From: Thermofilum pendens Hrk 5
GTDB taxonomy: Archaea; Thermoproteota; Thermoprotei; Thermofilales; Thermofilaceae
Length of the DNA stretch: 32,000 nucleotides
NCBI RefSeq assembly: GCF_000015225.1
Contig: NC_008698.1
Span: 1,140,001-1,172,000 of the forward strand
Direction of reading: 5' to 3'
Shown piece by piece: positions 5,835 through 27,730 of the stretch (position 1 is the stretch's first letter; the number at the start of each line of letters is the position of its first letter). The notes under the pieces are model-generated. The model had not been told where the DNA came from. It made no database searches and worked only from the letters and a program-made list of their open reading frames with translations. A program made the translations under genes and the position numbers.

Positions 5835-6925
5835 AGGTAGCCTACGAGAACCTCCCGTACCAGCACGTGGCCGACTCGCCCGCGACGAAGCACTACGCTA
5901 ACTGGGAGGTCTTCGAGGAGTACGTGGCCAGGCGGGAAAGGGCGTCCAGGCTCGGCGTCGACGCGGGGCTCCTGGTGCTCCGGCCAGACGTAACCCTGTC
6001 CCCAGGCACCGTGGGCGTGGAGGACGAGCCCTCCTGGCCCCTACCCGTGGACACGAAGCTACCGGCGTTCCACTTCTCGAACCTCGCCTCCTCGCTGAGC
6101 CTAGAACTCTCCGGCGAGAAGCTCGTCGTGGCAGTAGAGAAGCCCCTCGAAGGCTTCTACTCGGCACACCTGAACGTGAGGCTCCGGGGCTCCTCCTCGC
6201 TTATCCTCGTCTCCCTGGCGCCCCCAGAGGCGGCGGGGCTCTCGACGCTATCTCTGAACGTCTCCGTCGAGGAGGGCTCCAGGTCGCGTCTCGAGGTAAT
6301 ACTGTTCGACTCGGGAAGCTCGGCGACCGCGTTGATGGCCGTGGCCCGGCTAGGGGAAGGCTCGGCGCTCCAGGAATCGGTAGTCGCCGTGTCGGGCAGA
6401 GCCCTCTACGCGGACCTAAAGGCCTCGCTTAGAGGAGGAGGCTCGTCGCTGGACAGTTCGATACTCGCCGTGTCCCCGCGGGAGGCTCACGCAAGCCTCA
6501 ACACGGATGTAGCGGTAGAGTCGCCGCGCTCATCCGCCCTCATCAGGCTCGTAGGAGCCTCGGCGGACGGCTTCCTGGCGCACAAGGGGGCAGTGAAGAT
6601 AGTCAGAGGCTCCGTGAACGCCCGGGGAAGGCTCTCATCGAGGCTAATACCCCTCACCCCCTCCTCCAAGGTCTACGCCTCCCCCACCCTCGAGATAGAG
6701 TCTGACGACGCGGAAGAAGCCCAGCACTCGGCGTCCCAAAGCCCGGTAGACCCCCAGAGGATATTCTACCTCAGGAGCAGGGGCTTCACGGAGCAAGAGG
6801 CGCTCCGCCTCGCCCTGAAGGCAGAGGCCTTCAAGGCGTTCGAGGGAAGAAGCCCGAATGGCTACGTGCTGTTCTACATCGAGGAAGCCCTGAAGGCCGC
6901 GTTGCGAAGCGTCTCGGCTGGCTAG
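5831..6925 (+). CDS. sufD: Fe-S cluster assembly protein SufD (short, divergent)
   Basis: The in-frame GTG at 5831 forms a GTGA overlap with the sufB stop. The track ORF 5552-6925 has an R/G-rich N-terminal extension that lies inside sufB, and I discard it. The C-terminal block IFYLRSRGFTEQEALRLAL is typical of SufD. Confidence 0.8.
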   Translation: MKVAYENLPYQHVADSPATKHYANWEVFEEYVARRERASRLGVDAGLLVLRPDVTLSPGTVGVEDEPSWPLPVDTKLPAFHFSNLASSLSLELSGEKLVVAVEKPLEGFYSAHLNVRLRGSSSLILVSLAPPEAAGLSTLSLNVSVEEGSRSRLEVILFDSGSSATALMAVARLGEGSALQESVVAVSGRALYADLKASLRGGGSSLDSSILAVSPREAHASLNTDVAVESPRSSALIRLVGASADGFLAHKGAVKIVRGSVNARGRLSSRLIPLTPSSKVYASPTLEIESDDAEEAQHSASQSPVDPQRIFYLRSRGFTEQEALRLALKAEAFKAFEGRSPNGYVLFYIEEALKAALRSVSAG

Positions 6926-7000
6926 CGAACTAAAAAACTTTGAATCGAAGGGAGGCCGTAAGGGTCTATGCTTTTAAGCATTTTCCGCAAGGTTAATAGG

Positions 7001-7012
7001 AGTTATAATTTC
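7001..7012 (+). promoter_or_regulatory. TATA-like box (agttataatttc) for the sugar ABC operon
   Basis: Centred about 25 nt upstream of ATG 7031, which argues against the longer ORF start at 6968. Confidence 0.4.
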
Positions 7013-7030
7013 CAAGGGTTAACGATAAAA

Positions 7031-8098
7031 ATGTCCCAGCAGAAAACCGGCCCAGCCGGCAAGACCCTGGCTGTAGCGGTCGTGATAGGCCTTCTCATCG
7101 GCGCAGTAATCGGCTACGGGATCGCCGCGGCAACCATGGTTCCCTACTCCAAGTACGCCGAGCTCGAAAAGAAGCTCGAACAGCTACAAGCCGGCGCCGC
7201 CGCCCCGGAGTACACGTTCTACTACGTCTCCCACGGAGGCCCCGCTGACCCGTGGTGGGCCCCAGTAATCAAGGGATCCCAGGACGCGGCGAGGCTCCTC
7301 AACGTGAAGGTCGTGTACAGCGGGCCCGAGAAGTTCAGCATACAGGCCCTGGTCGACCTGCTGAACAGTGCTATCGCGGCTAAGCCTCAGGGCATTATAC
7401 TCACGATCACGGACTACAAGGCGCTCGACGAGCCGGCGAGGAGGGCTATCGCGCAGGGAATACCCATAATTGCCGTCAACGTCCCTGACCCCAGGCCGCC
7501 GAACGAGAGGATACCCTACCTTAGCTACGTCGGGCAGAACGAGTACGACGCTGGCTACTACCTAGCCAAGTACCTTGTAGACAAGGGCTACAAGCCGAAG
7601 CGCGTAGTGATAGGGATACACGAGGTAGGGCACATAGGTCTCGAGACAAGGGCGAAGGGGATAACCGACGCGATCACCCAGGCGTACCCGGGGACACCCG
7701 TCGAGAAGCTCGACATAACGACGGACCCGACGAAGGCCGCGGAGGTCTTTAAGAGCTACCTAACCGCGCACCCGGACACCGACGTCATATTCACGCTCGG
7801 ACCCCTCGGGGCCCACCCGGCGCTCCAGGTTCTCCGCGAGATGAAGCTAACGGGCAAGGTCCACCTCCTAACCGTCGATATCGACAACGTGATACTTAAA
7901 GCCATAGAGGCTGGAGAGCTCGACGCGGCTGTAAGCCAGCAGCCCTACGCGCAGGGCTTCCTGCCCGTAGTCTTCATGTACCTCTACGTGAAGTACGGGA
8001 TAATCCCGCCGCCCCAGGTGCCGACAGGGCCCACCGTTATCGACAAGGCGAAGCTGGAGACCGTGAAGAAGCAGATAGCGACGACAGGGGGAGCCTAA
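7031..8098 (+). CDS. Sugar ABC transporter substrate-binding protein (CUT2 / Peripla_BP_4-like), membrane-anchored
   Basis: N-terminal TM anchor KTLAVAVVIGLLIGAVIGYGIAAA, followed by a periplasmic-binding-protein type I pattern (FYYVSHGGPADPWWAPVIKG...GIILTITD...IPIIAVNVPD). Start moved to ATG 7031 because of the promoter position. Confidence 0.85.
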   Translation: MSQQKTGPAGKTLAVAVVIGLLIGAVIGYGIAAATMVPYSKYAELEKKLEQLQAGAAAPEYTFYYVSHGGPADPWWAPVIKGSQDAARLLNVKVVYSGPEKFSIQALVDLLNSAIAAKPQGIILTITDYKALDEPARRAIAQGIPIIAVNVPDPRPPNERIPYLSYVGQNEYDAGYYLAKYLVDKGYKPKRVVIGIHEVGHIGLETRAKGITDAITQAYPGTPVEKLDITTDPTKAAEVFKSYLTAHPDTDVIFTLGPLGAHPALQVLREMKLTGKVHLLTVDIDNVILKAIEAGELDAAVSQQPYAQGFLPVVFMYLYVKYGIIPPPQVPTGPTVIDKAKLETVKKQIATTGGA

Positions 8099-8101
8099 AA
8101 A

Positions 8102-8116
8102 TTTGTTTTTCTTTTT
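8102..8116 (+). terminator. T-rich tract (tttgtttttcttttt) after the binding-protein gene; possible partial intra-operon terminator
   Basis: An oligo-T run directly follows the stop at 8096-8098. Archaeal termination is oligo-T driven. Such a site would let the binding protein be expressed above the permease and ATPase. Confidence 0.35.
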
Positions 8117-8132
8117 CCCCTGGTGACCGGGT

Positions 8133-9119
8133 ATGGCTACACGGGCAGAGGGTCTGCGTAAAGCCGGTTTCCTGGCGCAACACCCGGAGATAGGGGTTGT
8201 CTCGAGCTTTTTCTCGATAGCCGCTGTTTTCCTCGTGCTCGTCCCGGACAAGTTCCTAACGCTACCTACGTTCTACAGCATACTCACGCTCGCAGGCGAG
8301 CTCGGCGTCGTGAGCCTCGGGGTAGCGTTCCTCATGATCACCGGGGAGTTCAACCTGTCCGTGAGCTCCGTCTACGCCCTCGTGCCCATGGGGGTAGCCA
8401 TCATGGCGAACATGGGTGTAGACATGTTGCTAGCATCCGTGGTTATGCTCGCGCTCGCGTACGGGATAGGGGTACTCGTCGGCTACGTGACCATAAAGAC
8501 AGGGATACCGAGCTTCATAACGTCGCTCGGCATGATGATGTTCCTGCGCGGCATACTGCTAGCAATCACGGGCGGCTTCCCCGTCAGGCTCGAGCACGAC
8601 CACTGGCTCATGTACGCCCTCAACGGCCCAGTCGGGGAGCAGGGGCTCAGGACGAGCGCCGCGTGGCTCGTAGCACTCACCGCGCTGCTAGCGTTCATCC
8701 TCGACTGGACCCCCTACGGCAACTGGACGTACGCCGTGGGGGCGAGCCCGAACACGGCTAGGGAGCTGGGAGTCTCCGTCACGAAGGTCAAGCTCCTGAA
8801 CTTCGGCCTCTCGTCCCTGCTAGCGGGGCTCGCGGGGCTAATGGCGCTGAGCAGGTTCAAGGTCGTAGACCCCACGCTGGGGCAAGGCCTGGAGCTGGAA
8901 GCCATAACGTCCGCGGTACTCGGGGGGTGCCTGCTCACCGGGGGTTACGGCAGCATAACGGGGACCTTCCTCGGAGCCTTCCTCATAGCCATGACGCGCG
9001 TCGGGCTCGTCCTCGCGAAGGCGCCCGCCTACTGGTACAGCGCGTTCATAGGAGTGATACTGATAGTAGCCACCGTGATAAACATATTCGTGGTGAGGAA
9101 GTACGTAGCCGGTGGGTGA
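8133..9119 (+). CDS. Sugar ABC transporter permease (RbsC/BPD_transp_2-like)
   Basis: 328 aa, about 9-10 TM helices. LMITGEFNLSVSSVYAL corresponds to the GGIDLSVG block of CUT2 permeases. Confidence 0.87.
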   Translation: MATRAEGLRKAGFLAQHPEIGVVSSFFSIAAVFLVLVPDKFLTLPTFYSILTLAGELGVVSLGVAFLMITGEFNLSVSSVYALVPMGVAIMANMGVDMLLASVVMLALAYGIGVLVGYVTIKTGIPSFITSLGMMMFLRGILLAITGGFPVRLEHDHWLMYALNGPVGEQGLRTSAAWLVALTALLAFILDWTPYGNWTYAVGASPNTARELGVSVTKVKLLNFGLSSLLAGLAGLMALSRFKVVDPTLGQGLELEAITSAVLGGCLLTGGYGSITGTFLGAFLIAMTRVGLVLAKAPAYWYSAFIGVILIVATVINIFVVRKYVAGG

Positions 9120-9903
9120 GAGCGTGGCGGAGCCGTTGCTGGAGATGAGGGGGATAGTGAAGAGGTTCGGCAGGGTGGAGGCGCTTAGAGGCGTAGACTT
9201 CCACGTCGGCAGAGCCGAGGTGGTCGGGCTAGTCGGCGACAACGGGGCGGGGAAGTCCACCCTCGTGAAGATAATCGCCGGCGTCTACCAGCCGGACGCC
9301 GGGCAGATGTTCTTCGAGGGGCAACCCGTCGTGTTCAGGCACCCGAGCGAGGCTAGGGCTAGGGGCATAGAGATAGTCTACCAGCACCTCGCGCTGATAG
9401 ACTTGCTGAGCATAGACAGGAACATATTCCTCGGAAGGGAGCCCACCAAGAGGATAGGCCCAATAGCGATCCTAGACAAGGCGAGGATGGAGAGGGAGGC
9501 GTGGAGCATACTGCAGGACATCGGGCTTAGGAGGATCCGCTCGCCGTCTGAGAGAGTAGCGAAGCTCAGCGGGGGAGAGAGGCAGAGCGTGGCTATAGGG
9601 AGAGCCATGCACTTCAAGGCAAAGCTACTAATACTCGACGAGCCGACAGCCGCCCTCTCGGTGCGCGAAACGCGGAGAGTGCTCGACCACGTACTAGAGG
9701 TCAAGAAGCAGGGAGTAAGCGTCATAATAATCTCCCACAACATCTACCACGTCTACGAGGTATCCGACAGGATAGTAGCACTGGACCACGGCAGAAAGAT
9801 ACTCGACGTGCCAAGGGAGAAGGTTACCCCCGAGGAAGTAATAGACGTAATCAGGACGGGAGCCCCCGCCACCCCACAGCCAGAAGAAAACCAGCGCGTA
9901 TAA
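9112..9903 (+). CDS. Sugar ABC transporter ATP-binding protein (single nucleotide-binding domain)
   Basis: 263 aa. Walker A GDNGAGKST, signature LSGGERQSVAIGRA, Walker B LLILDEPTAAL. GTG start overlaps the permease stop by 8 nt. Confidence 0.9.
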   Translation: MGESVAEPLLEMRGIVKRFGRVEALRGVDFHVGRAEVVGLVGDNGAGKSTLVKIIAGVYQPDAGQMFFEGQPVVFRHPSEARARGIEIVYQHLALIDLLSIDRNIFLGREPTKRIGPIAILDKARMEREAWSILQDIGLRRIRSPSERVAKLSGGERQSVAIGRAMHFKAKLLILDEPTAALSVRETRRVLDHVLEVKKQGVSVIIISHNIYHVYEVSDRIVALDHGRKILDVPREKVTPEEVIDVIRTGAPATPQPEENQRV

Positions 9904-10162: not shown

Positions 10163-11581
10163 CTAGGCTAGCTCGGCGACCTCTCGGAGGACTTCCCACA
10201 CAGTCTTCTCCCACTCAGCGGAAGGCTTCAGGCTCTTCAAGTCGTAGAGCTCCCAGAACGGCTTCCCGGGGTTCGGGCTGGAAAGCTTGTCGGCGTACTT
10301 CTCGTACAGCTCCAGAGCGGCGGACCACGCCGCGCCCACGCTCACCTTTTTCTCGGCGACGAGGTCCGCCAGGCTCGCGACGAACCACGACTCGAAGCCA
10401 CCGCCGTTCGGCTGGGTCCCGTTCGCCGGTACGGGTCCAAGCACGTTGAGCCCCGACGCTACGGCGACGAACGTGTTGGCGGCCGCCTCGTAGAGGTACT
10501 CTCTCGTGCCGCCCCCGTTGGCAGGCCAGATGTCTGCCACGACCGGGAGTCCCATGTACCTGTTCGCGAGGCCGACGACGGACTCTACCCACATGCATTC
10601 AAGCGTCGAGGTCGCCTTCCTCAGTATGTGAACCGGGTGCACCAGGAAGTAGCCAGCCTCGTAAGCGACCAGCGCGAGGAGAGTCTCGGCGACGCTGACG
10701 ATAGCGGAGCCCGCGGGCCCCCTCGCGTACCCGCCCACCACGGGGTCTACCAGGGCGGCCCCTATGAGCCCCCTCGCTAGCCCGACGTACGCCTTAGTCA
10801 ACTGACCATAGTCCGTTTTAAGCTCGTTAAGCACGGGGAGCAACTGGGCGTCCCCCTCTCCCAGGAGCCCGAGGGAGAGGGCGGAGAGGCTCCCCACCGA
10901 GGACACGCTACTCTCAGCCCCCAGTACGTGCATACCGGGCCTCCCGACAGCCCGCAGAGCCCTCCTAACCCCCTCAGCCTCCTCGATACCCGCCAGCGCC
11001 TCGCTCGGCGCGTAGCCCCGCACAGCCTCCCCCGCTACAGCCTGGATGCTCCCGTGGTCCAAGGCGTCTACCCTCGGCACAGCGGCGTACGAAGCCGCGG
11101 ACGCCTCGAAGAACTCCAGAGGGACGGGCGTCCCCGCAAGGCCCCCGAACACGAAGACCCTGTCCCCCGGGCCCCTCGCTCGGAGCACCCTCTCGTCCTT
11201 GCCGCGCCCGACCCTGAGCTCCCTCGGGGCGTTCCTCAAAGCCTCCCTGACCTCCTCCTCGGTGAACCTCGCAACGCGCGACTCGTCGACCACGTAGAGC
11301 CCCGTCTCGACGGCGAGGGTGAACCCAGCCTCGAAGACGGGTTTAGCCAGGTCCTCGCTGGGAGCCGGGCTCGACGGGTCGAAGCTAACCCCGTACTCCT
11401 TCTCCAGCTCGGCGACCCTCCTGGAAACCCTCTCCAAGTCGAACCTCTTCTGCTCTACGTACTCCCCCTTCCTCGCCCTCAGCTCTACGAGGAGCGGCCC
11501 CCTCACGCTGTGGAAAACGCTCCGCGAGCTTATATACTTGAAGCGCGTGCTCTGCGTAGCTCCTCTACGAGCTTCGCACAC
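10163..11581 (-). CDS. MtmB-family (monomethylamine methyltransferase-like) protein lacking pyrrolysine
   Basis: 472-aa ORF, colinear with my recollection of Methanosarcina barkeri MtmB across its whole length. Matching blocks include GRPGMHVLGAESS versus GRPGMGV-Pyl-GPETS, LNELKTDY versus LNELKIDL, and LYEKY..PGKPFWELYDLKSLKPSAEW versus LYEKNY..AGKTFQECYDVKTVTPTEEY. The start is uncertain: GTG 11581 overlaps the corrinoid gene by 52 nt, while an alternative GTG at 11506 lies 24 nt downstream of that gene's stop. Confidence 0.8.
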   Translation of the reverse strand: MCEARRGATQSTRFKYISSRSVFHSVRGPLLVELRARKGEYVEQKRFDLERVSRRVAELEKEYGVSFDPSSPAPSEDLAKPVFEAGFTLAVETGLYVVDESRVARFTEEEVREALRNAPRELRVGRGKDERVLRARGPGDRVFVFGGLAGTPVPLEFFEASAASYAAVPRVDALDHGSIQAVAGEAVRGYAPSEALAGIEEAEGVRRALRAVGRPGMHVLGAESSVSSVGSLSALSLGLLGEGDAQLLPVLNELKTDYGQLTKAYVGLARGLIGAALVDPVVGGYARGPAGSAIVSVAETLLALVAYEAGYFLVHPVHILRKATSTLECMWVESVVGLANRYMGLPVVADIWPANGGGTREYLYEAAANTFVAVASGLNVLGPVPANGTQPNGGGFESWFVASLADLVAEKKVSVGAAWSAALELYEKYADKLSSPNPGKPFWELYDLKSLKPSAEWEKTVWEVLREVAELA

Positions 11582-12213
11582 TTCTCCACGGCGTCCACCG
11601 CGTCCCTGCCGTAGGCGTCCGCGCCTATCTCCCTCGCGATCTCCTCGGTTACGGGGGCTCCCCCCACTATCACCTTGACCTTGTCCCTGAGGCCCGCCGC
11701 CTTCAACGCGTCTATAACGTTCCTCATCTCCAGCATCGTGGTAGTGAGGAGAGCGCTCATACCGACAACCTCCGCCCCGTACTTCTCGACCGCCTCCACG
11801 AACCTCTCGGGCGGCACGTCCACCCCGAGGTCCACCACCTCGAAGCCGTTAACCCTGAGCATAGTGGCGACGAGGTTCTTGCCGATATCGTGTATATCCC
11901 CGCGCACCGTCCCTATCACCACGCGCCCCCTAACGCCGGCCCGGGAGCCCTTAAGCCTCGGCAACACGTACTTCTCCATCACCGAGTTGAATATGTCCCC
12001 AGCCTCGACGAGCTCCGGGAGGAAGTACTCGCCTCTCTCAAACCTAACGCCGACCTCCACCATCCCCTTTCTCAACCCCTCCTCGACGACCTCCACGACG
12101 TCGCAGCCAGCCTCGAGAGCCTCGGAGACCAGGCGCTCGACAGTCCCGGCGTCCAGGTCGGCGAGCCTCCTCGAGATCTCCGCGTAGACACCCCTGCAGT
12201 CCACGGGGATCAC
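11530..12213 (-). CDS. Cobalamin-binding corrinoid protein (MtmC/MtbC/MttC-like)
   Basis: 227 aa. N-terminal helical cap domain plus a B12-binding Rossmann domain with GDIHDIGKNLV (DxHxxG), MSALLTTT (SxL) and VIVGGAP (GG). The GTG start forms a GTGA overlap with the upstream small ORF. Confidence 0.88.
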   Translation of the reverse strand: MIPVDCRGVYAEISRRLADLDAGTVERLVSEALEAGCDVVEVVEEGLRKGMVEVGVRFERGEYFLPELVEAGDIFNSVMEKYVLPRLKGSRAGVRGRVVIGTVRGDIHDIGKNLVATMLRVNGFEVVDLGVDVPPERFVEAVEKYGAEVVGMSALLTTTMLEMRNVIDALKAAGLRDKVKVIVGGAPVTEEIAREIGADAYGRDAVDAVEKCAKLVEELRRARASSI

Positions 12214-12524
12214 TCCAGTATCAAGACAACCCTCTCGGGCACGAACCTCAGCTCCTCCCCCTCCCTGAGGAAGCGGTAGGCAACCCTAGCCCCTCCCTCG
12301 AACTCCTCCACGTCTACCACGCCGACGCGTACACCCCTTTCCGCGACCATCAACGCGAAGTCCTCGAAGTAGTCGTAGAAGCCGCAAGTCACGCAGAAGC
12401 TACCCACGAACTCGGCGACAAAGCCGTCCCCACGCCACTCCACGACCCTCACCTGCCCCTCGCTACCGTGAAGCCTGTTAAACTCCTCCACAGCCTCCTC
12501 AACGGCTACGCGAGCCTCAACCAC
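12210..12524 (-). CDS. Small CxxC protein (about 105 aa), possibly an Nfu/NifU-C-like fold
   Basis: Frame of track ORF 12210-12614. That ORF begins with TTG and overlaps the pilin-like gene, so I prefer the in-frame GTG at 12524. Contains GSFCVTCG. Its stop overlaps the corrinoid gene start (GTGA at 12210-12213). Confidence 0.5.
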   Translation of the reverse strand: MVEARVAVEEAVEEFNRLHGSEGQVRVVEWRGDGFVAEFVGSFCVTCGFYDYFEDFALMVAERGVRVGVVDVEEFEGGARVAYRFLREGEELRFVPERVVLILE

Positions 12525-12540
12525 GCCGCAAGAAACGAGC

Positions 12541-12553
12541 AGAAAAAGAAAAA
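12541..12553 (-). terminator. Oligo-T tract (minus sense tttttctttttct) just downstream of the pilin-like gene
   Basis: Plus strand reads agaaaaagaaaaa at 12541-12553, 8 nt after the stop at 12562-12564. Confidence 0.35.
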
Positions 12554-12561
12554 CCTTACTC

Positions 12562-13005
12562 TTACCCTCTGTACGTGAATACGTAGGAAGCCTTAGTGCC
12601 GTACTTCGTGACAACCTCGACAGTATAGGTATTACCGGCTGTTAGAGTGACAGAAGTAGTCACCGTACTGACTTGTCCAGGACTAATTACTACGGGAGTT
12701 GCAAGTTGATAATTATTATTATTACTGTTTATTATTGTTCCTGAACCGTTAAAGACGTAGATCGTGGTGATGTTAACCTTTACATCTCCAACGTTTCTCA
12801 CGTATGCGGTTAACGTAGTGCCATTGTAGCTTACTGCTTCTATTGCGATTCTCTCTTGTAGCTGGGTTGTGCTTGCTTGCTGTGTGAGGGTTCCTTGGTA
12901 CCCGGTGATCCAGATGTACGCTAGGACTGCCGCGGCTACTGCTATGACTATTAGGAGTAGTGTTGCTATTACGGGGCTTACGCCCCTCTTTTTCATCGTT
13001 TTCAC
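12562..13005 (-). CDS. Archaeal type IV pilin-like protein with class III signal peptide (DUF361 / archaellin-N-terminal-like)
   Basis: MKTMKKRG|VSPVIATLLLIVIAVAAAVLAYIW is the canonical prepilin-peptidase (PibD/FlaK) substrate N-terminus. The rest is a T/N/V-rich beta-type domain. GTG at 13005 or ATG at 12996. The TATA-like box (minus sense cgtatataaag, plus 13029-13039) sits about 29 nt upstream of GTG 13005 and about 38 nt upstream of ATG 12996. Confidence 0.8.
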   Translation of the reverse strand: MKTMKKRGVSPVIATLLLIVIAVAAAVLAYIWITGYQGTLTQQASTTQLQERIAIEAVSYNGTTLTAYVRNVGDVKVNITTIYVFNGSGTIINSNNNNYQLATPVVISPGQVSTVTTSVTLTAGNTYTVEVVTKYGTKASYVFTYRG

Positions 13006-13054
13006 CGGTAATACCTTTGTATTTTTAGCTTTATATACGTAGCGATAAAAATGG

Positions 13055-13882
13055 CTATATGTTGCCGCCGTAGTAGTCTGCCCGGGTTAGCTTGAGGAAG
13101 AGTTTCTTCGTGTCCTCTATTTCCCGCTTGACGCGCGGGTCCTCCACCTCCTTTCTGCGCTTCTCGTTGGACTCCAGGACGAACTCGAATAGCTTCGAGG
13201 GGTAGGCTTTGTTCAGTATCTCGGTGTTGGGTATCAGGCAGTGACCACCTATGTAGTCGGGGAAGTAGACGGGCCTGTCTCCCAGCACCTCGTGTACCTC
13301 CGCTATGAATTCGGCTACGACCCTTATGTCGGCGCCGTACCTCGCCGCGACCCTGTGTAGCTCCTGCCACGAGGCTATCATCACGGCTCTATACACGGTC
13401 TCCCAGAGCTTCGCTATCTCGAGCGACTCGGGGCTACTGGCGAGCTTCACCTTGAAGCCTGCCGCCTCCAAGTGCCTCTTCGCCTCTTCGGTGAAGCCCT
13501 CGGGGACCGCACTGACCCACTTCGGCCAGAAGAGCAGGTGCTTCTTCAGGTTTGGGTGCTTCCCCCTGACGGGGGTGTAGGCGACGGGTAGCCTTGCCTC
13601 GCCGTGTAGGAGCCTCGTCGTGCCCGGCGCGACCGTGGAGTGCACGAAGACAGCCCTCGGCTTCAGCTTCTCCGCGTAGGACTTGACGGCGTCGACGAAG
13701 CGCGGAGTGAACGGTATGGCTACGTGCAGGTAGTCCAGCGGCGCCGGCACGTCTTCCAGCCTGTGCACGGTCTTCGACGGGTCCAGGTCGTAGCCGTAGA
13801 CCTCCATCCTCCCGGAGTCCCTGAGAACCTCGTAGACAGCGGAGCCAACCTCTCCTAGACCTACGACGAGCACTCTCTCCAT
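13055..13882 (-). CDS. NAD(P)-binding dehydrogenase of the UDP-glucose/GDP-mannose dehydrogenase family, short form
   Basis: 275 aa. Rossmann N-terminus MERVLVVGLGEVGSAV. The central-domain pattern SLEIAKLWETVYRAVMIASWQELHRVAARYGADIRVV and YIGGHCLIPN resembles the aE..K...N / GGxCxxKD catalytic-Cys block. The protein ends about 50 aa after the Cys, so no C-terminal UDP-binding domain is present. Confidence 0.6.
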   Translation of the reverse strand: MERVLVVGLGEVGSAVYEVLRDSGRMEVYGYDLDPSKTVHRLEDVPAPLDYLHVAIPFTPRFVDAVKSYAEKLKPRAVFVHSTVAPGTTRLLHGEARLPVAYTPVRGKHPNLKKHLLFWPKWVSAVPEGFTEEAKRHLEAAGFKVKLASSPESLEIAKLWETVYRAVMIASWQELHRVAARYGADIRVVAEFIAEVHEVLGDRPVYFPDYIGGHCLIPNTEILNKAYPSKLFEFVLESNEKRRKEVEDPRVKREIEDTKKLFLKLTRADYYGGNI

Positions 13883-24845: not shown

Positions 24846-26177
24846 ATGCCGGAAGAGTTTGAACCTTACGGCGAATTTGTGGTCAAGAGCTACCTGCCGG
24901 ATCCCGATAAAGACGTCATTGTCACATTTAGGGTTACTCCGAGCGAGGGCTTCACAATAGAGGACGCAGCGGGAGGCGTAGCCGCGGAGAGCAGCGTCGG
25001 CACGTGGACTACCCTGTACCAGTGGTACGATAAGAGCAGGATCGACAGGCTCAAGGGGAAGGCTTACTACATGGAGAGCCTGGGCGACGGGTCATACATC
25101 CTCCGGGTCGCGTACCCCGTCGAGCTGTTCGAAGAGGGGAACATGCCGGCCTTCCTGGCGTCCGTTGCCGGCAACATTTTCGGCATGAGGAGGGTCCGCT
25201 CCCTGAGGGTTGAGGACATATACTTGCCCGAAGCCTTCCTGAAGCACTTCAAGGGCCCCTCGCAGGGCGTCGAGGGTGTACGCGGGAAGCTGAAGATCTG
25301 GGGGAGGCCCATAATAGGCACCGTGCCGAAGCCGAAGGTCGGGTACTCCCCCGAGGAGGTCGAGAAGCTGGCCTACGAGATACTGGTCGGGGGCATGGAC
25401 TTCGTGAAGGACGACGAGAACCTGGCGGGCCCGAGCTACTGCAGGTTCGAGGAGAGGGCTAAGGCGATAATGAAGGCGATAGACAGGGCCGAAAAGGAGA
25501 CGGGCGAGAGGAAGGCCTGGCTCGCCAACATAACGGCGGACGTCAGGGAGATGGAGCGCAGGCTTAAGCTTGTAGCGGAGCTCGGCAACACGCACGTCAT
25601 GGTCGACGTGGTGATAGCGGGCTGGTCCTCCCTGACGTACGTAAGGGATCTAGCCGCGGACTACAAGCTGGCGATACACGGGCACAGGGCTTTCCACGCC
25701 GCCTTCACCCGGAACCCCTACCACGGTGTATCGATGTTCACCCTCGCGAAGCTGTACAGGATAATCGGCGTCGACCAGCTACACGTAGGGACACCGGAGG
25801 TCGGCAAGCTGGAGGCGAAAGCCGTAGACGTGATCAGGATGGCGCGCCTACTCAGGGAGCAGACGTACAAGCCAGACATTGAGGACGGGCTCCACATGCA
25901 GCAACCATTCCCCGGGATAAAGCCGGCTTTCCCCGTCTCCAGCGGAGGCCTCCACCCGGGCACGCTACCCGCTGTCATCAAGGCTATGGGCGTAGACACC
26001 GTCATCCAGGTTGGAGGGGGCGTTGTAGGGCACCCCGACGGACCGAGGGCGGGCGCCGCCGCGGCTAGGCAGGCTGTAGAAGCGTACCTCGAGGGAGTCC
26101 CGCTACAGGAGTACGCGAAGACGCACAGAGAGCTTGCAAGAGCCCTCGAGAAATGGGGGCAAGTGATACCCGTCTAG
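24846..26177 (+). CDS. rbcL: Ribulose-1,5-bisphosphate carboxylase/oxygenase large subunit, form III
   Basis: 443 aa, near-colinear with my recollection of Thermococcus form III RbcL. Blocks: AAESSVGTWTT, GTVPKPKVGYSP, FVKDDENL (carbamylated Lys), AIHGHRAFHAAFTRNPYHG, PVSSGGLHPG, VGGGVVGHPDG, ELARALEKWG. Confidence 0.95.
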   Translation: MPEEFEPYGEFVVKSYLPDPDKDVIVTFRVTPSEGFTIEDAAGGVAAESSVGTWTTLYQWYDKSRIDRLKGKAYYMESLGDGSYILRVAYPVELFEEGNMPAFLASVAGNIFGMRRVRSLRVEDIYLPEAFLKHFKGPSQGVEGVRGKLKIWGRPIIGTVPKPKVGYSPEEVEKLAYEILVGGMDFVKDDENLAGPSYCRFEERAKAIMKAIDRAEKETGERKAWLANITADVREMERRLKLVAELGNTHVMVDVVIAGWSSLTYVRDLAADYKLAIHGHRAFHAAFTRNPYHGVSMFTLAKLYRIIGVDQLHVGTPEVGKLEAKAVDVIRMARLLREQTYKPDIEDGLHMQQPFPGIKPAFPVSSGGLHPGTLPAVIKAMGVDTVIQVGGGVVGHPDGPRAGAAAARQAVEAYLEGVPLQEYAKTHRELARALEKWGQVIPV

Positions 26178-27730
26178 GCGCGGACGACGCTTTCCCGCCG
26201 CCTCTCTAGGGCTTGCTTTTCTTCGAAGAGTTGCTTGATCTCCTCGTCAATCCTCGACGCTCTACGCTCAACGTAGGATATGAAGGCCTCGAGGAAGAAC
26301 CTTAAAGGCGCCATGTGCGCCCCCTTGAGGTAGAACTTGCCCATTATCTCCCGGGCCCAGTAGAGGTCGTGCCTCAAGCAAGCCTTCATGACCTCTACGT
26401 GCTCCCTGGTTATCATCTCCCTCCTGAACTTCTCCATGTTCTTCAGCTTCCCCATGGGGACGAAGAGCATGGGCACTATGAGGCTCCTGTAGGGCTTCAA
26501 GTCGTCGACGAGCTCCGCGGTCTTGACGACGTCGTCCGGGGTCTCGCCGGGTAGCCCGAGTATAAGCGTAGCCGCTGGGACAACCCTGTTGTCGTGCATT
26601 ATCGCGAAGGCGTCCTTCACGACCTCCACCCACTCCTCCGCCCTGTAGGGTAGCGCCTTCGCCGGCATGACCTCCCTCGCCAATCTCGCGCTACCCGTCT
26701 CTATCCCGACCTCCACCCCAAGTATCTCCTGCCTCTCGCTCAGCATCTCCATTAATCGCGATACCAGCCTGTAGTTATCCTCGGCGTACTTCACGGCGGA
26801 TAGGCTTGCGTGGGACCACGCGACGCTGCCGGGTGCCTCTTTGAGCACCTCGGCGTGGAGCTTTAGGACGGGCTCGGGCCTCGGCTTTACGCCGTCGGCG
26901 CCGTAGAGCAGGACGTCCTCGCTGTGTAGCAGGACGTTCCTCAGCCCAGCCCTCACGTTGACCCTGACCTCCGCCACAACCTTCTCTATGGGCATGAACC
27001 TCAGGGGTCTCAGCGTCACGGAGCAGAACCTGCAGCCCCTGGGGCAACCCCTCATTATCTCTACCAGCCCGTTGACGCTGGCGCCCCTGATCACCGGTAT
27101 CTCCTCTATGCTTGGAGCGTCGCGGGGGCTCACGTAGACGTACTCTGGGAGCGGCTCCCCCCTGTAAACCTTCTCGACTAGGTCCACGACGACCCCCTCA
27201 CCCTCCCCGTCGACGACGGTGTCCACGCCCCACTTCTTCCAGCTCTCCAGCTCCCAGAGCCACTGCCACGCCGCGGGCCCCCCGGCGATTATCTTCACGC
27301 CTTTCTCCTTCGCCTTGCGCACAGCGGGGGACTCCATGAGCCTCCTGAAGCTCCTCCTGTTAACAGGCTCCCTGCCCGTGATAACCCACCACTCGCTGCT
27401 CGGCGGGCCGTAAGCAAAGTAGTCGTGGTGCCCCACTAGGAGCACCTTCATAGTGTCCAAGTGCTTGTCCAAGTGGTCTGGGTCGACGATGGCGGCGTTG
27501 AAGCCAGCCTCCTGGAGCTTCGCCTCTATCTTCCTGAGCCCGTAGGGCGCTACGCGCGGCCTGCCGAGCCTGTCGACCTTGGGCTTCGGGCAGCACGCCC
27601 ACATCCAGAGCCTCTCCGGGACCCCTATAGCGGGCCCAGTGGCCATGAAGCCTATGAACTCCTTGCCGTGGTGGTCCGTTATCATTGTCCTATCGGACGT
27701 TATAACTACCTCGAAAACCACCGACGTCAC
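26174..27730 (-). CDS. Radical SAM enzyme with an N-terminal B12-binding-like domain (COG1032 / class B-like)
   Basis: 518 aa. CxxxCxxC as RGCPRGCRFCS (codons at 27023-27046, checked on the DNA), preceded by an alpha/beta domain of about 220 aa, the usual position of the cobalamin-binding domain. GTG start forms a GTGA overlap with the upstream 95-aa gene. Its 3' end overlaps the rbcL stop by 4 nt (convergent). Confidence 0.87.
   Translation of the reverse strand: MTSVVFEVVITSDRTMITDHHGKEFIGFMATGPAIGVPERLWMWACCPKPKVDRLGRPRVAPYGLRKIEAKLQEAGFNAAIVDPDHLDKHLDTMKVLLVGHHDYFAYGPPSSEWWVITGREPVNRRSFRRLMESPAVRKAKEKGVKIIAGGPAAWQWLWELESWKKWGVDTVVDGEGEGVVVDLVEKVYRGEPLPEYVYVSPRDAPSIEEIPVIRGASVNGLVEIMRGCPRGCRFCSVTLRPLRFMPIEKVVAEVRVNVRAGLRNVLLHSEDVLLYGADGVKPRPEPVLKLHAEVLKEAPGSVAWSHASLSAVKYAEDNYRLVSRLMEMLSERQEILGVEVGIETGSARLAREVMPAKALPYRAEEWVEVVKDAFAIMHDNRVVPAATLILGLPGETPDDVVKTAELVDDLKPYRSLIVPMLFVPMGKLKNMEKFRREMITREHVEVMKACLRHDLYWAREIMGKFYLKGAHMAPLRFFLEAFISYVERRASRIDEEIKQLFEEKQALERRRESVVRA

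Follow-up and report, generated by a model that had tools for sequence, protein, structure and literature searches.

Background

The monomethylamine methyltransferase MtmB1 of M. barkeri carries at position 202 a pyrrolysine (Pyl) that is encoded by UAG, and the Pyl of MtmB has been described as located in 'an anionic cleft'. Amber-less homologues of the methylamine methyltransferases MtmB, MtbB and MttB are found in bacteria and in a few non-methanogenic archaea. They have small or bulky hydrophobic residues at the Pyl site, the genomes that contain amber-less homologues alone never carry a complete pyl set, and it was argued that these homologues will not share the chemistry of Pyl (Rother & Krzycki 2010, PMC2933860). 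Thermofilum pendens was named in that review for its MttB homologue. The first function reported for a non-Pyl MtmB is that of MtqB (ACT9XH_RS04775) from Methanococcoides methylutens Q3c, which demethylates tetramethylammonium and choline and has trace monomethylamine activity without Pyl. The MtqB clade branches near the Pyl-containing MtmBs, and MtqB feeds methanogenesis through MtbA and coenzyme M (Kashyap et al., PMC13044021). Here we analyse a stretch of 32,000 nucleotides from T. pendens Hrk 5 (NC_008698.1, positions 1,140,001 to 1,172,000; hereafter the window, in whose own coordinates positions are given), the minus strand of which encodes an MtmB-like protein with a leucine at the place of Pyl, next to a gene for a corrinoid protein.

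A leucine in the pyrrolysine column

The gene is a Pyl-independent member of the MtmB family, and its product is probably the first-step (substrate:corrinoid) methyltransferase (MT1) of a corrinoid-dependent system. The features on which this account is based are the following:

10163..11506, minus strand: non-pyrrolysine MtmB-family methyltransferase gene, 447 residues, GTG start at 11506, stop codon at 10163-10165
10922..10924, minus strand: CTG codon of Leu195, in the column of MtmB1 Pyl202 (UAG), from the sequence read and the alignments
11530..11536 (11536-11530), minus strand: TATATAA, a candidate archaeal TATA box that overlaps the corrinoid gene stop, about 27 nucleotides 5' of GTG 11506

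An earlier, sequence-only reading of this DNA had reported a CTG leucine codon at 10922-10924 in an uninterrupted frame. Both observations are borne out by the minus strand, which reads GGG AGG CCC GGT ATG CAC GTA CTG GGG GCT GAG AGT AGC with the CTG at 10924-10922, and by the open reading frame 10163-11581(-), which has zero internal stops and zero in-frame UAG codons. The start and the numbering given there (residue 220, counted from GTG 11581) have to be shifted by 25 codons. GTG 11581 lies 52 nucleotides inside the upstream corrinoid-protein gene (stop at 11530-11532). Translation from GTG 11506 yields exactly the 447-residue T. pendens database protein (P0001, 'monomethylamine:corrinoid methyltransferase'; 100% identity), so that the leucine is Leu195 and not Leu220. 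The position of the TATATAA element would also support GTG 11506 as the start, and this element may be an internal promoter that gives rise to a leaderless MtmB-like transcript.

The protein matches the Pfam family MtmB (PF05369) over nearly its full length (E = 2.3e-69, 234.8 bits, profile positions 9-444 of 450); no NCBIfam model matches it at E <= 0.01. A phmmer search against all PDB sequences recovered MtmB1 of M. barkeri (1l2q/1nth, E = 3.6e-51), whose block GRPGMGVXGPETS, X being residue 202, aligns gap-free with GRPGMHVLGAESS, the translated block around the CTG codon. The MtmB motif that the sequence-only reading had given, GRPGMGV-O-GPETS, is therefore the right one. The same column is reached with MAFFT-auto on 181 sequences and with MAFFT L-INS-i on 28 sequences, so that three independent sequence alignments concur in placing Leu195 opposite Pyl202. 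For an AlphaFold2 model computed from 28 members of the clade, the mean predicted local distance difference test score is 90.4 and the predicted template modelling (TM) score 0.92. In Foldseek, the model superposes on 1nth, 1l2q and 1tv2 with a TM score of 0.93 and a root mean square deviation of 2.1-2.2 A over 450 columns, which corresponds to the TIM-barrel fold of MtmB. In this model, Leu195 lies within the β-strand 193-196.

The distribution of residues at this column was surveyed with a full HMMER scan of 1.84 billion representative proteins, the matches being clustered at 50% identity. The family comprises 629 clusters at E <= 1e-3 and 126 at E <= 1e-30, and nearly all of the best 150 matches listed are uninterrupted proteins of about 455 residues. 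In the 181-sequence alignment, the GRPG[ML] motif is conserved and the Pyl column is hypervariable:

Most frequent residues: L 58 (30 of them from the T. pendens clade), I 16, G 16, V 15
Less frequent residues: F 8, T 8, M, N, C and S 7 each, A 6; others fewer

Leucine is nonetheless invariant in the Thermofilaceae clade, where it occupies the column in 30 of 30 sequences (51-100% identity). The survey of other non-Pyl homologues that the sequence-only reading had called for thus gives a column that is hypervariable overall and fixed as leucine in this clade.

The RefSeq and UniRef label of the protein, monomethylamine methyltransferase, is a homology-based annotation. Anderson and colleagues, in their 2008 paper on the T. 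pendens genome, reportedly drew attention to the same gene. Since the gene was annotated long ago as part of a large family that was already known, and since the 2010 review had already formulated the rule on the Pyl site, the substitution of leucine for Pyl is of a documented kind and adds nothing new in itself. A literature search on Thermofilum with monomethylamine, MtmB or corrinoid methyltransferase returned nothing relevant beyond that review (PMC2933860); an mlp-cluster paper considered as a source (PMC10418091) does not deal with MtmB. Only one member of the non-Pyl MtmB family, MtqB, has been characterised (in 2026), and what the present analysis adds are the gene clusters described below: an MT1/corrinoid protein/RACo/MesA-like cluster in Thermofilaceae, and a purine-type importer with a URO-D-family second methyltransferase (MT2) in a sister clade. 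These clusters provide a testable idea for a hot-spring archaeal branch, namely that methyl groups are harvested for methionine or for thiol methylation outside methanogenesis.

The active site without pyrrolysine

The surroundings of the Pyl column differ between MtmB1 and the T. pendens clade. The aligned positions, with the MtmB1 residue given first, are:

Replaced: Glu229 by Leu222, Glu259 by Leu252, Gln333 by Asp325
Replaced: Tyr335 by Trp327, Gly200 by His193, Gly297 by His290, Asn158 by His151
Kept: Glu205 as Glu198, His300 as His293

All nine T. pendens residues (Leu222, Leu252, Asp325, Trp327, His193, His290, His151, Glu198 and His293) are invariant in the clade, as is Asp254; altogether, 121 columns show no variation in an alignment of 28 sequences that are 51-100% identical. 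In the AlphaFold2 model, His151, His193, Glu198, Asp254, His290, His293, Asp325 and Trp327 are located in or directly after barrel strands. The anionic cleft, as far as it consists of Glu229 and Glu259, which we take to be Pyl contacts, has not been kept, these positions being leucines; Glu205 is retained as Glu198.

Without Pyl there can be no Pyl-imine chemistry, and either the substrate or the activation mechanism must then differ, as the sequence-only reading had concluded. Its logic stands and agrees with the leucines at the Glu229 and Glu259 positions, yet its 'must' is slightly too strong because MtqB has trace monomethylamine activity without Pyl. The predicted MT1 would take a methyl group from a small methylated compound other than Pyl-activated monomethylamine and would transfer it to the corrinoid, in the Co(I) state, that the adjacent protein carries. 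Leu195 could fill the Pyl slot as a hydrophobic floor, and the clade-specific polar set (His151, His193, Glu198, Asp254, His290, His293, Asp325, Trp327) presumably binds and activates the substrate.

The same residues can be read in another way, as those of an MtqB-type quaternary-amine methyltransferase in which Trp327, Asp325 and Glu198 would hold a cation such as tetramethylammonium, choline or a similar compound in place of a Pyl adduct. MtqB is the sole characterised non-Pyl MtmB, and the aromatic and acidic set at the mouth of the barrel is invariant in the clade. Nevertheless, the comparison with MtqB is an indirect one, made through the non-Pyl representatives nearest to MtmB1 (P0200, P0206 and P0157). 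These representatives are 38-43% identical to MtmB1 and keep Glu259 and DGP-x-H. The MtqB clade is likewise near the Pyl-containing MtmBs, but the T. pendens protein shares just 27-28% identity with the three representatives and has neither E259 nor DGP-x-H. It belongs instead with sequences that have the motif set H-x-[LI], DA[QH]L-x-P, L-x-DP, HP-x-H and GD-x-W, which is common to the T. pendens clade, its sister clade and P0077-P0081. An MtqB-type system would further be expected to operate in a methanogenic host, together with RamA and a coenzyme M methylase of the MtbA type, whereas T. pendens is not a methanogen and the window contains neither URO-D nor RACo genes. An MtqB-type enzyme therefore seems unlikely, although MtqB activity does indicate that the MtmB fold supports Pyl-free methyl transfer.

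Gene neighbourhood in T. pendens

The MtmB-like gene directly follows a gene for a corrinoid protein, and a small reading frame precedes the latter. These genes face a transporter:

11530..12213, minus strand: cognate corrinoid (B12-binding) protein gene, 227 residues, ending 23 nucleotides before the MtmB-like start
12210..12614, minus strand: small open reading frame with a 4-bp overlap with the start of the corrinoid gene, conserved over its C-terminal ~90 residues (12210-12482)
6968-9903, plus strand: ABC transporter of the CUT2 monosaccharide type, made up of a binding protein, a permease and an ATPase and transcribed convergently to the MtmB-like gene

The corrinoid protein has the Pfam domains B12-binding and B12-binding_2 and a DxHxxG motif, here GDIHDIG. 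Its match to the NCBIfam model TIGR02370 (methyltransferase cognate corrinoid protein) reaches 203 bits, below the cutoff of 215.3, and it also resembles MtgC/MtbC. The locus thus contains an MT1-type protein and the adjacent DxHxxG corrinoid protein of a three-component corrinoid methyltransferase system. The window has no RACo/RamA-type activator, URO-D-family methyltransferase, MetE-like (MesA-like) methyltransferase or MtbA-type partner, and it has no tRNA gene.

The small reading frame has no Pfam match and contains FCVTCG. According to tblastn, it lies directly 5' of the corrinoid gene in related contigs, with 83-89% amino acid identity in L085 and L087-L089, 72% over 132 residues in L083 and 60% in L092; in L093, a 41% match is located elsewhere on the contig. 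It is possibly the first gene of the operon and an unrecognised member of it.

The CUT2 transporter was considered as an importer of the substrate, a weak candidate given its monosaccharide type, its convergent orientation and a synteny limited to close relatives: it is kept in the Thermofilum-like L087 and L090, only among orthologues with at least 72-74% MtmB identity and not among more distant ones. It is probably unrelated to the methyltransferase.

Just 5' of the small reading frame, corrinoid and MtmB-like genes are an UpsA-like type IV pilin gene (12562-13005, minus strand) and another small reading frame (13002-13370, minus strand), a synteny that is kept in Thermofilum-like contigs. 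The remaining genes of the window encode SufBD, RuBisCO, a B12-radical S-adenosylmethionine (SAM) protein, peptidases and other transporters. The RuBisCO large-subunit homologue (24846-26177, plus strand), presumably of the archaeal type III, is arranged tail-to-tail, with a 4-bp overlap, with the gene at 26174-27730 (minus strand). The latter encodes the B12-binding radical SAM protein, which is TIGR04013-like and represents another cobamide-dependent enzyme in T. pendens, an organism regarded as incapable of making most cofactors.

Gene clusters in related archaea

The pair of MtmB-like and corrinoid genes is kept in about 15 related loci, including that of the isolate Infirmifilum lucidum, and the corrinoid gene is immediately upstream in L083-L085, L087-L090, L092, L098, L099, L134, L003 and L007. 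When the loci are sorted by the identity of their MtmB-like protein to that of T. pendens, their contexts are:

72-78% identity (L083-L085, L087-L090, L098): corrinoid gene directly upstream; L087 and L090 also share the convergent CUT2 transporter
65-67% identity (L092, L099, I. lucidum L134): corrinoid gene upstream
65% identity (L006, L094-L097): MtmB-like gene alone
60-61% identity (L003/L004, L007 = L100 contig, L008 = L093 signature): corrinoid protein, MtmB-like protein, convergent RACo and a MetE-core-like protein of 309-322 residues
50-56% identity (L001, L002, L005, L101-L110, L126): MtmB-like gene without a corrinoid gene nearby
38-44% identity, sister clade (L112, L113, L115, L119, L121): Bmp/PnrA-type binding protein, double ABC ATPase, two permeases, URO-D-family MT2, corrinoid protein, one or two MtmB paralogues and RACo

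The RACo beside the 60-61% orthologues, on three distinct contigs, has the Fer2, Raco_middle and RACo_C_ter domains. In L001 (2175-4055), L002 and L005, the MtmB-like gene is followed by a gene for a protein of 196-198 residues and then by one for a UxaA-like (GD_AH) dehydratase, and L101-L110 are probably organised alike. L093 has a small SAM-methyltransferase-like reading frame and a class I/II aminotransferase gene between the corrinoid and MtmB-like genes (6333-7957, plus strand), and a gene for a V4R-domain protein (12015-12785, minus strand) after that of the MetE-core-like protein. These additional genes may link the cluster to methionine or 2-oxo-acid metabolism.

Judged by their gene content, the sister-clade clusters resemble an entire methyltransferase system, hitherto uncharacterised and equipped with an importer, with the exceptions that L112 has no URO-D gene and L121 no RACo. 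Where two MtmB paralogues stand in tandem, the Pyl column of the second one is occupied by Asn or Lys. Among solved structures, those nearest to their Bmp protein are AtzT (6pi5, E = 1.8e-35) and a basic membrane lipoprotein (3s99, E = 1.9e-29). We take both of these to be purine binders, AtzT being an atrazine/purine-binding protein. This importer suggests that the substrate of the T. pendens enzyme could itself be an N-methylated purine or another heterocycle. The Bmp gene occurs in all five sister-clade contigs, and the set of ABC ATPase, two permeases, URO-D MT2, corrinoid protein, MtmB-like protein and, usually, RACo is found in L113, L115, L119 and L121. Yet the sister clade shares no more than 38-44% identity with the T. 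pendens protein, whose gene has no Bmp transporter beside it, the adjacent transporter being the convergent monosaccharide-type one that is kept only in close relatives. We regard a purine-like substrate in T. pendens as decidedly unlikely.

The MesA-like partner

The MetE-core-like protein encoded beside the 60-61% orthologues resembles MesA, the core (folate-independent) methionine synthase that was reported from methanogens only (Price et al. 2021, PMC7857596). Its genes are:

L003, 12858-13787, minus strand: MesA-like (MetE-core-like) protein gene
L007, 12867-13835, minus strand: MesA-like (MetE-core-like) protein gene
L008, 6604-7560, plus strand: MesA-like (MetE-core-like) protein gene

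The invariant residues of this protein are S11, Q40, D157/E158/P159, H199/C201, H223/E224 and D286/C287. They include the MetE zinc ligands (H199, C201, E224, C287) and homocysteine-binding residues (S11, Q40, D157), and their spacing resembles that of the MesA proteins tabulated in PMC7857596. A profile of the family finds only MetE enzymes in the PDB, and the match to the NCBIfam methionine synthase model PRK00957 (E = 3e-15, 56 bits) is far below the cutoff of 258. A peptide-pattern scan in which each GTDB species was represented by one genome yielded 75 loci (L008-L082), all from metagenome-assembled genomes of Thermofilaceae, Bathyarchaeia, Nezhaarchaeales, Nitrososphaerota and Asgard archaea. 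The family may form a branch of core methionine synthases that exists outside methanogens and has so far not been described. The gene sometimes adjoins that of a corrinoid protein or RACo (L013, L014, L016, L017, L044, L053).

Proposed function

The proposal that the T. pendens protein is an MT1 is helped by the arrangement in related Thermofilaceae, where the methyl group would probably be passed on to homocysteine or another thiol by the MesA-like zinc methyltransferase and where a RACo/RamA-type reductive activator would probably keep the carrier active. The donor may be an onium compound, by analogy with MtqB, or an N-methylated heterocycle, as the sister-clade importer suggests. For T. 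pendens itself, the link to methionine is held with lower confidence than the general statement on MT1.

A wider scenario can be sketched only tentatively, and we have more doubt than trust in it. In hyperthermophiles that are not methanogens, the Thermofilaceae pair would provide the first steps of a folate-independent route to methionine or of methyl salvage. A methylated compound taken up from outside, perhaps an onium or an N-methylated heterocycle, would lose its methyl group at a site that has no Pyl, is lined by His, Asp and Trp and is possibly metal-assisted, and the methyl group would travel through the corrinoid protein and the MesA-like enzyme to homocysteine. The MesA-like enzyme would then represent an undescribed core methionine synthase branch that is widespread in Bathyarchaeia, Nezhaarchaeales and Asgard archaea.

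Several observations weigh against these proposals. Neither a RACo nor a MesA-like gene is present in the window. None of the 75 MesA-like loci comes from T. pendens, an Infirmifilum isolate or a cultured member of the Thermofilaceae, and none of 105 RACo profile matches is named T. pendens; as the searches are limited by peptide patterns and words, absence from T. pendens is in both cases likely but unproven. A word-indexed search with the MesA-like protein, which relies on shared words, gave no T. pendens match either. Similarly, I. lucidum has no RACo or MesA-like gene within 10 kb of its pair. If the absence is real, the T. pendens pair is left without a known activator or acceptor. The gene context is also non-uniform, since 65% orthologues stand alone and the 50-56% group lies by a UxaA-like dehydratase gene without a corrinoid gene. 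Finally, the comparison of the active sites depends on Glu229, Glu259 and Gln333 as Pyl-contacting residues of MtmB1, which were reportedly identified by Hao et al. in 2002 and 2004; a literature search on the active site of MtmB1 around Glu259 found no paper.

The missing partners could also mean that the T. pendens pair is a functionless remnant, or that it has been re-used non-catalytically, for corrinoid binding or sensing, after the loss of the activator and the second methyltransferase. T. pendens is known for a massive loss of biosynthetic pathways, which would be in keeping with such a decay. Nevertheless, both reading frames are intact, the catalytic-face residues are invariant, and the pair is kept with its upstream small reading frame across the Thermofilum and Infirmifilum lineages at 65-78% identity. 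Between the T. pendens MtmB-like gene and its closest orthologues, the proportion of nonsynonymous differences (pN) is 0.19-0.20 and that of synonymous differences (pS) about 0.75; the resulting pN/pS of about 0.27 can be read only as pN << pS, the synonymous sites being saturated and dN/dS not usable. A remnant or a non-catalytic re-use is thus improbable.

That the protein is still the monomethylamine methyltransferase of its RefSeq and UniRef name, working without Pyl, is very hard to credit in spite of the small residual activity of MtqB, given the lack of a Pyl codon, the leucines at the Glu229 and Glu259 positions, the homology-only basis of the annotation and the case made in 2010 (PMC2933860) against shared chemistry.

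Comparison with known systems

An MT1 acting without Pyl, the reading that we favor, can be set beside four known systems. Like MtmB1 of M. barkeri (PDB 1NTH, 1L2Q, 1TV2), the T. pendens protein belongs to PF05369, with about 31% identity over the full length and the same TIM barrel. It has the GRPGM, LNELK, GGY and P-x-H motifs and the equivalent of Glu205 (Glu198), and the cognate corrinoid protein is adjacent in both cases. It differs from MtmB1 by the CTG leucine codon that replaces the UAG of Pyl202 and by its host, a non-methanogenic crenarchaeon in which neither MtbA nor RamA is encoded nearby.

The non-Pyl members of the MttB superfamily (MtgB for glycine betaine, MtcB for carnitine, MtyB for gamma-butyrobetaine and MtpB for proline betaine) offer a parallel in that amber-less enzymes use other donors together with a cognate corrinoid protein. 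They are, however, non-homologous to the MtmB family at the sequence level (COG5598/PF06253), and Foldseek gives a TM score of only about 0.5 to MttB/MtgB structures.

MesA shares with the MesA-like partner of L003, L007 and L008 the zinc ligands and the homocysteine residues, and the methyl group would be expected to come from a corrinoid protein in both. The partner differs in that it occurs in non-methanogens and clusters with an MtmB-like MT1 and not with MtrA or CoFeSP.

MtqB and the T. pendens protein are both non-Pyl members of the MtmB family with a dedicated corrinoid protein. The MtqB clade is characterised by a conserved Met/Cys and aromatic pocket. The T. pendens clade belongs to a distinct hot-spring archaeal group with motifs of its own (H-x-L, DAQLLP, L-x-DP, HP-x-H and GD-x-WP).

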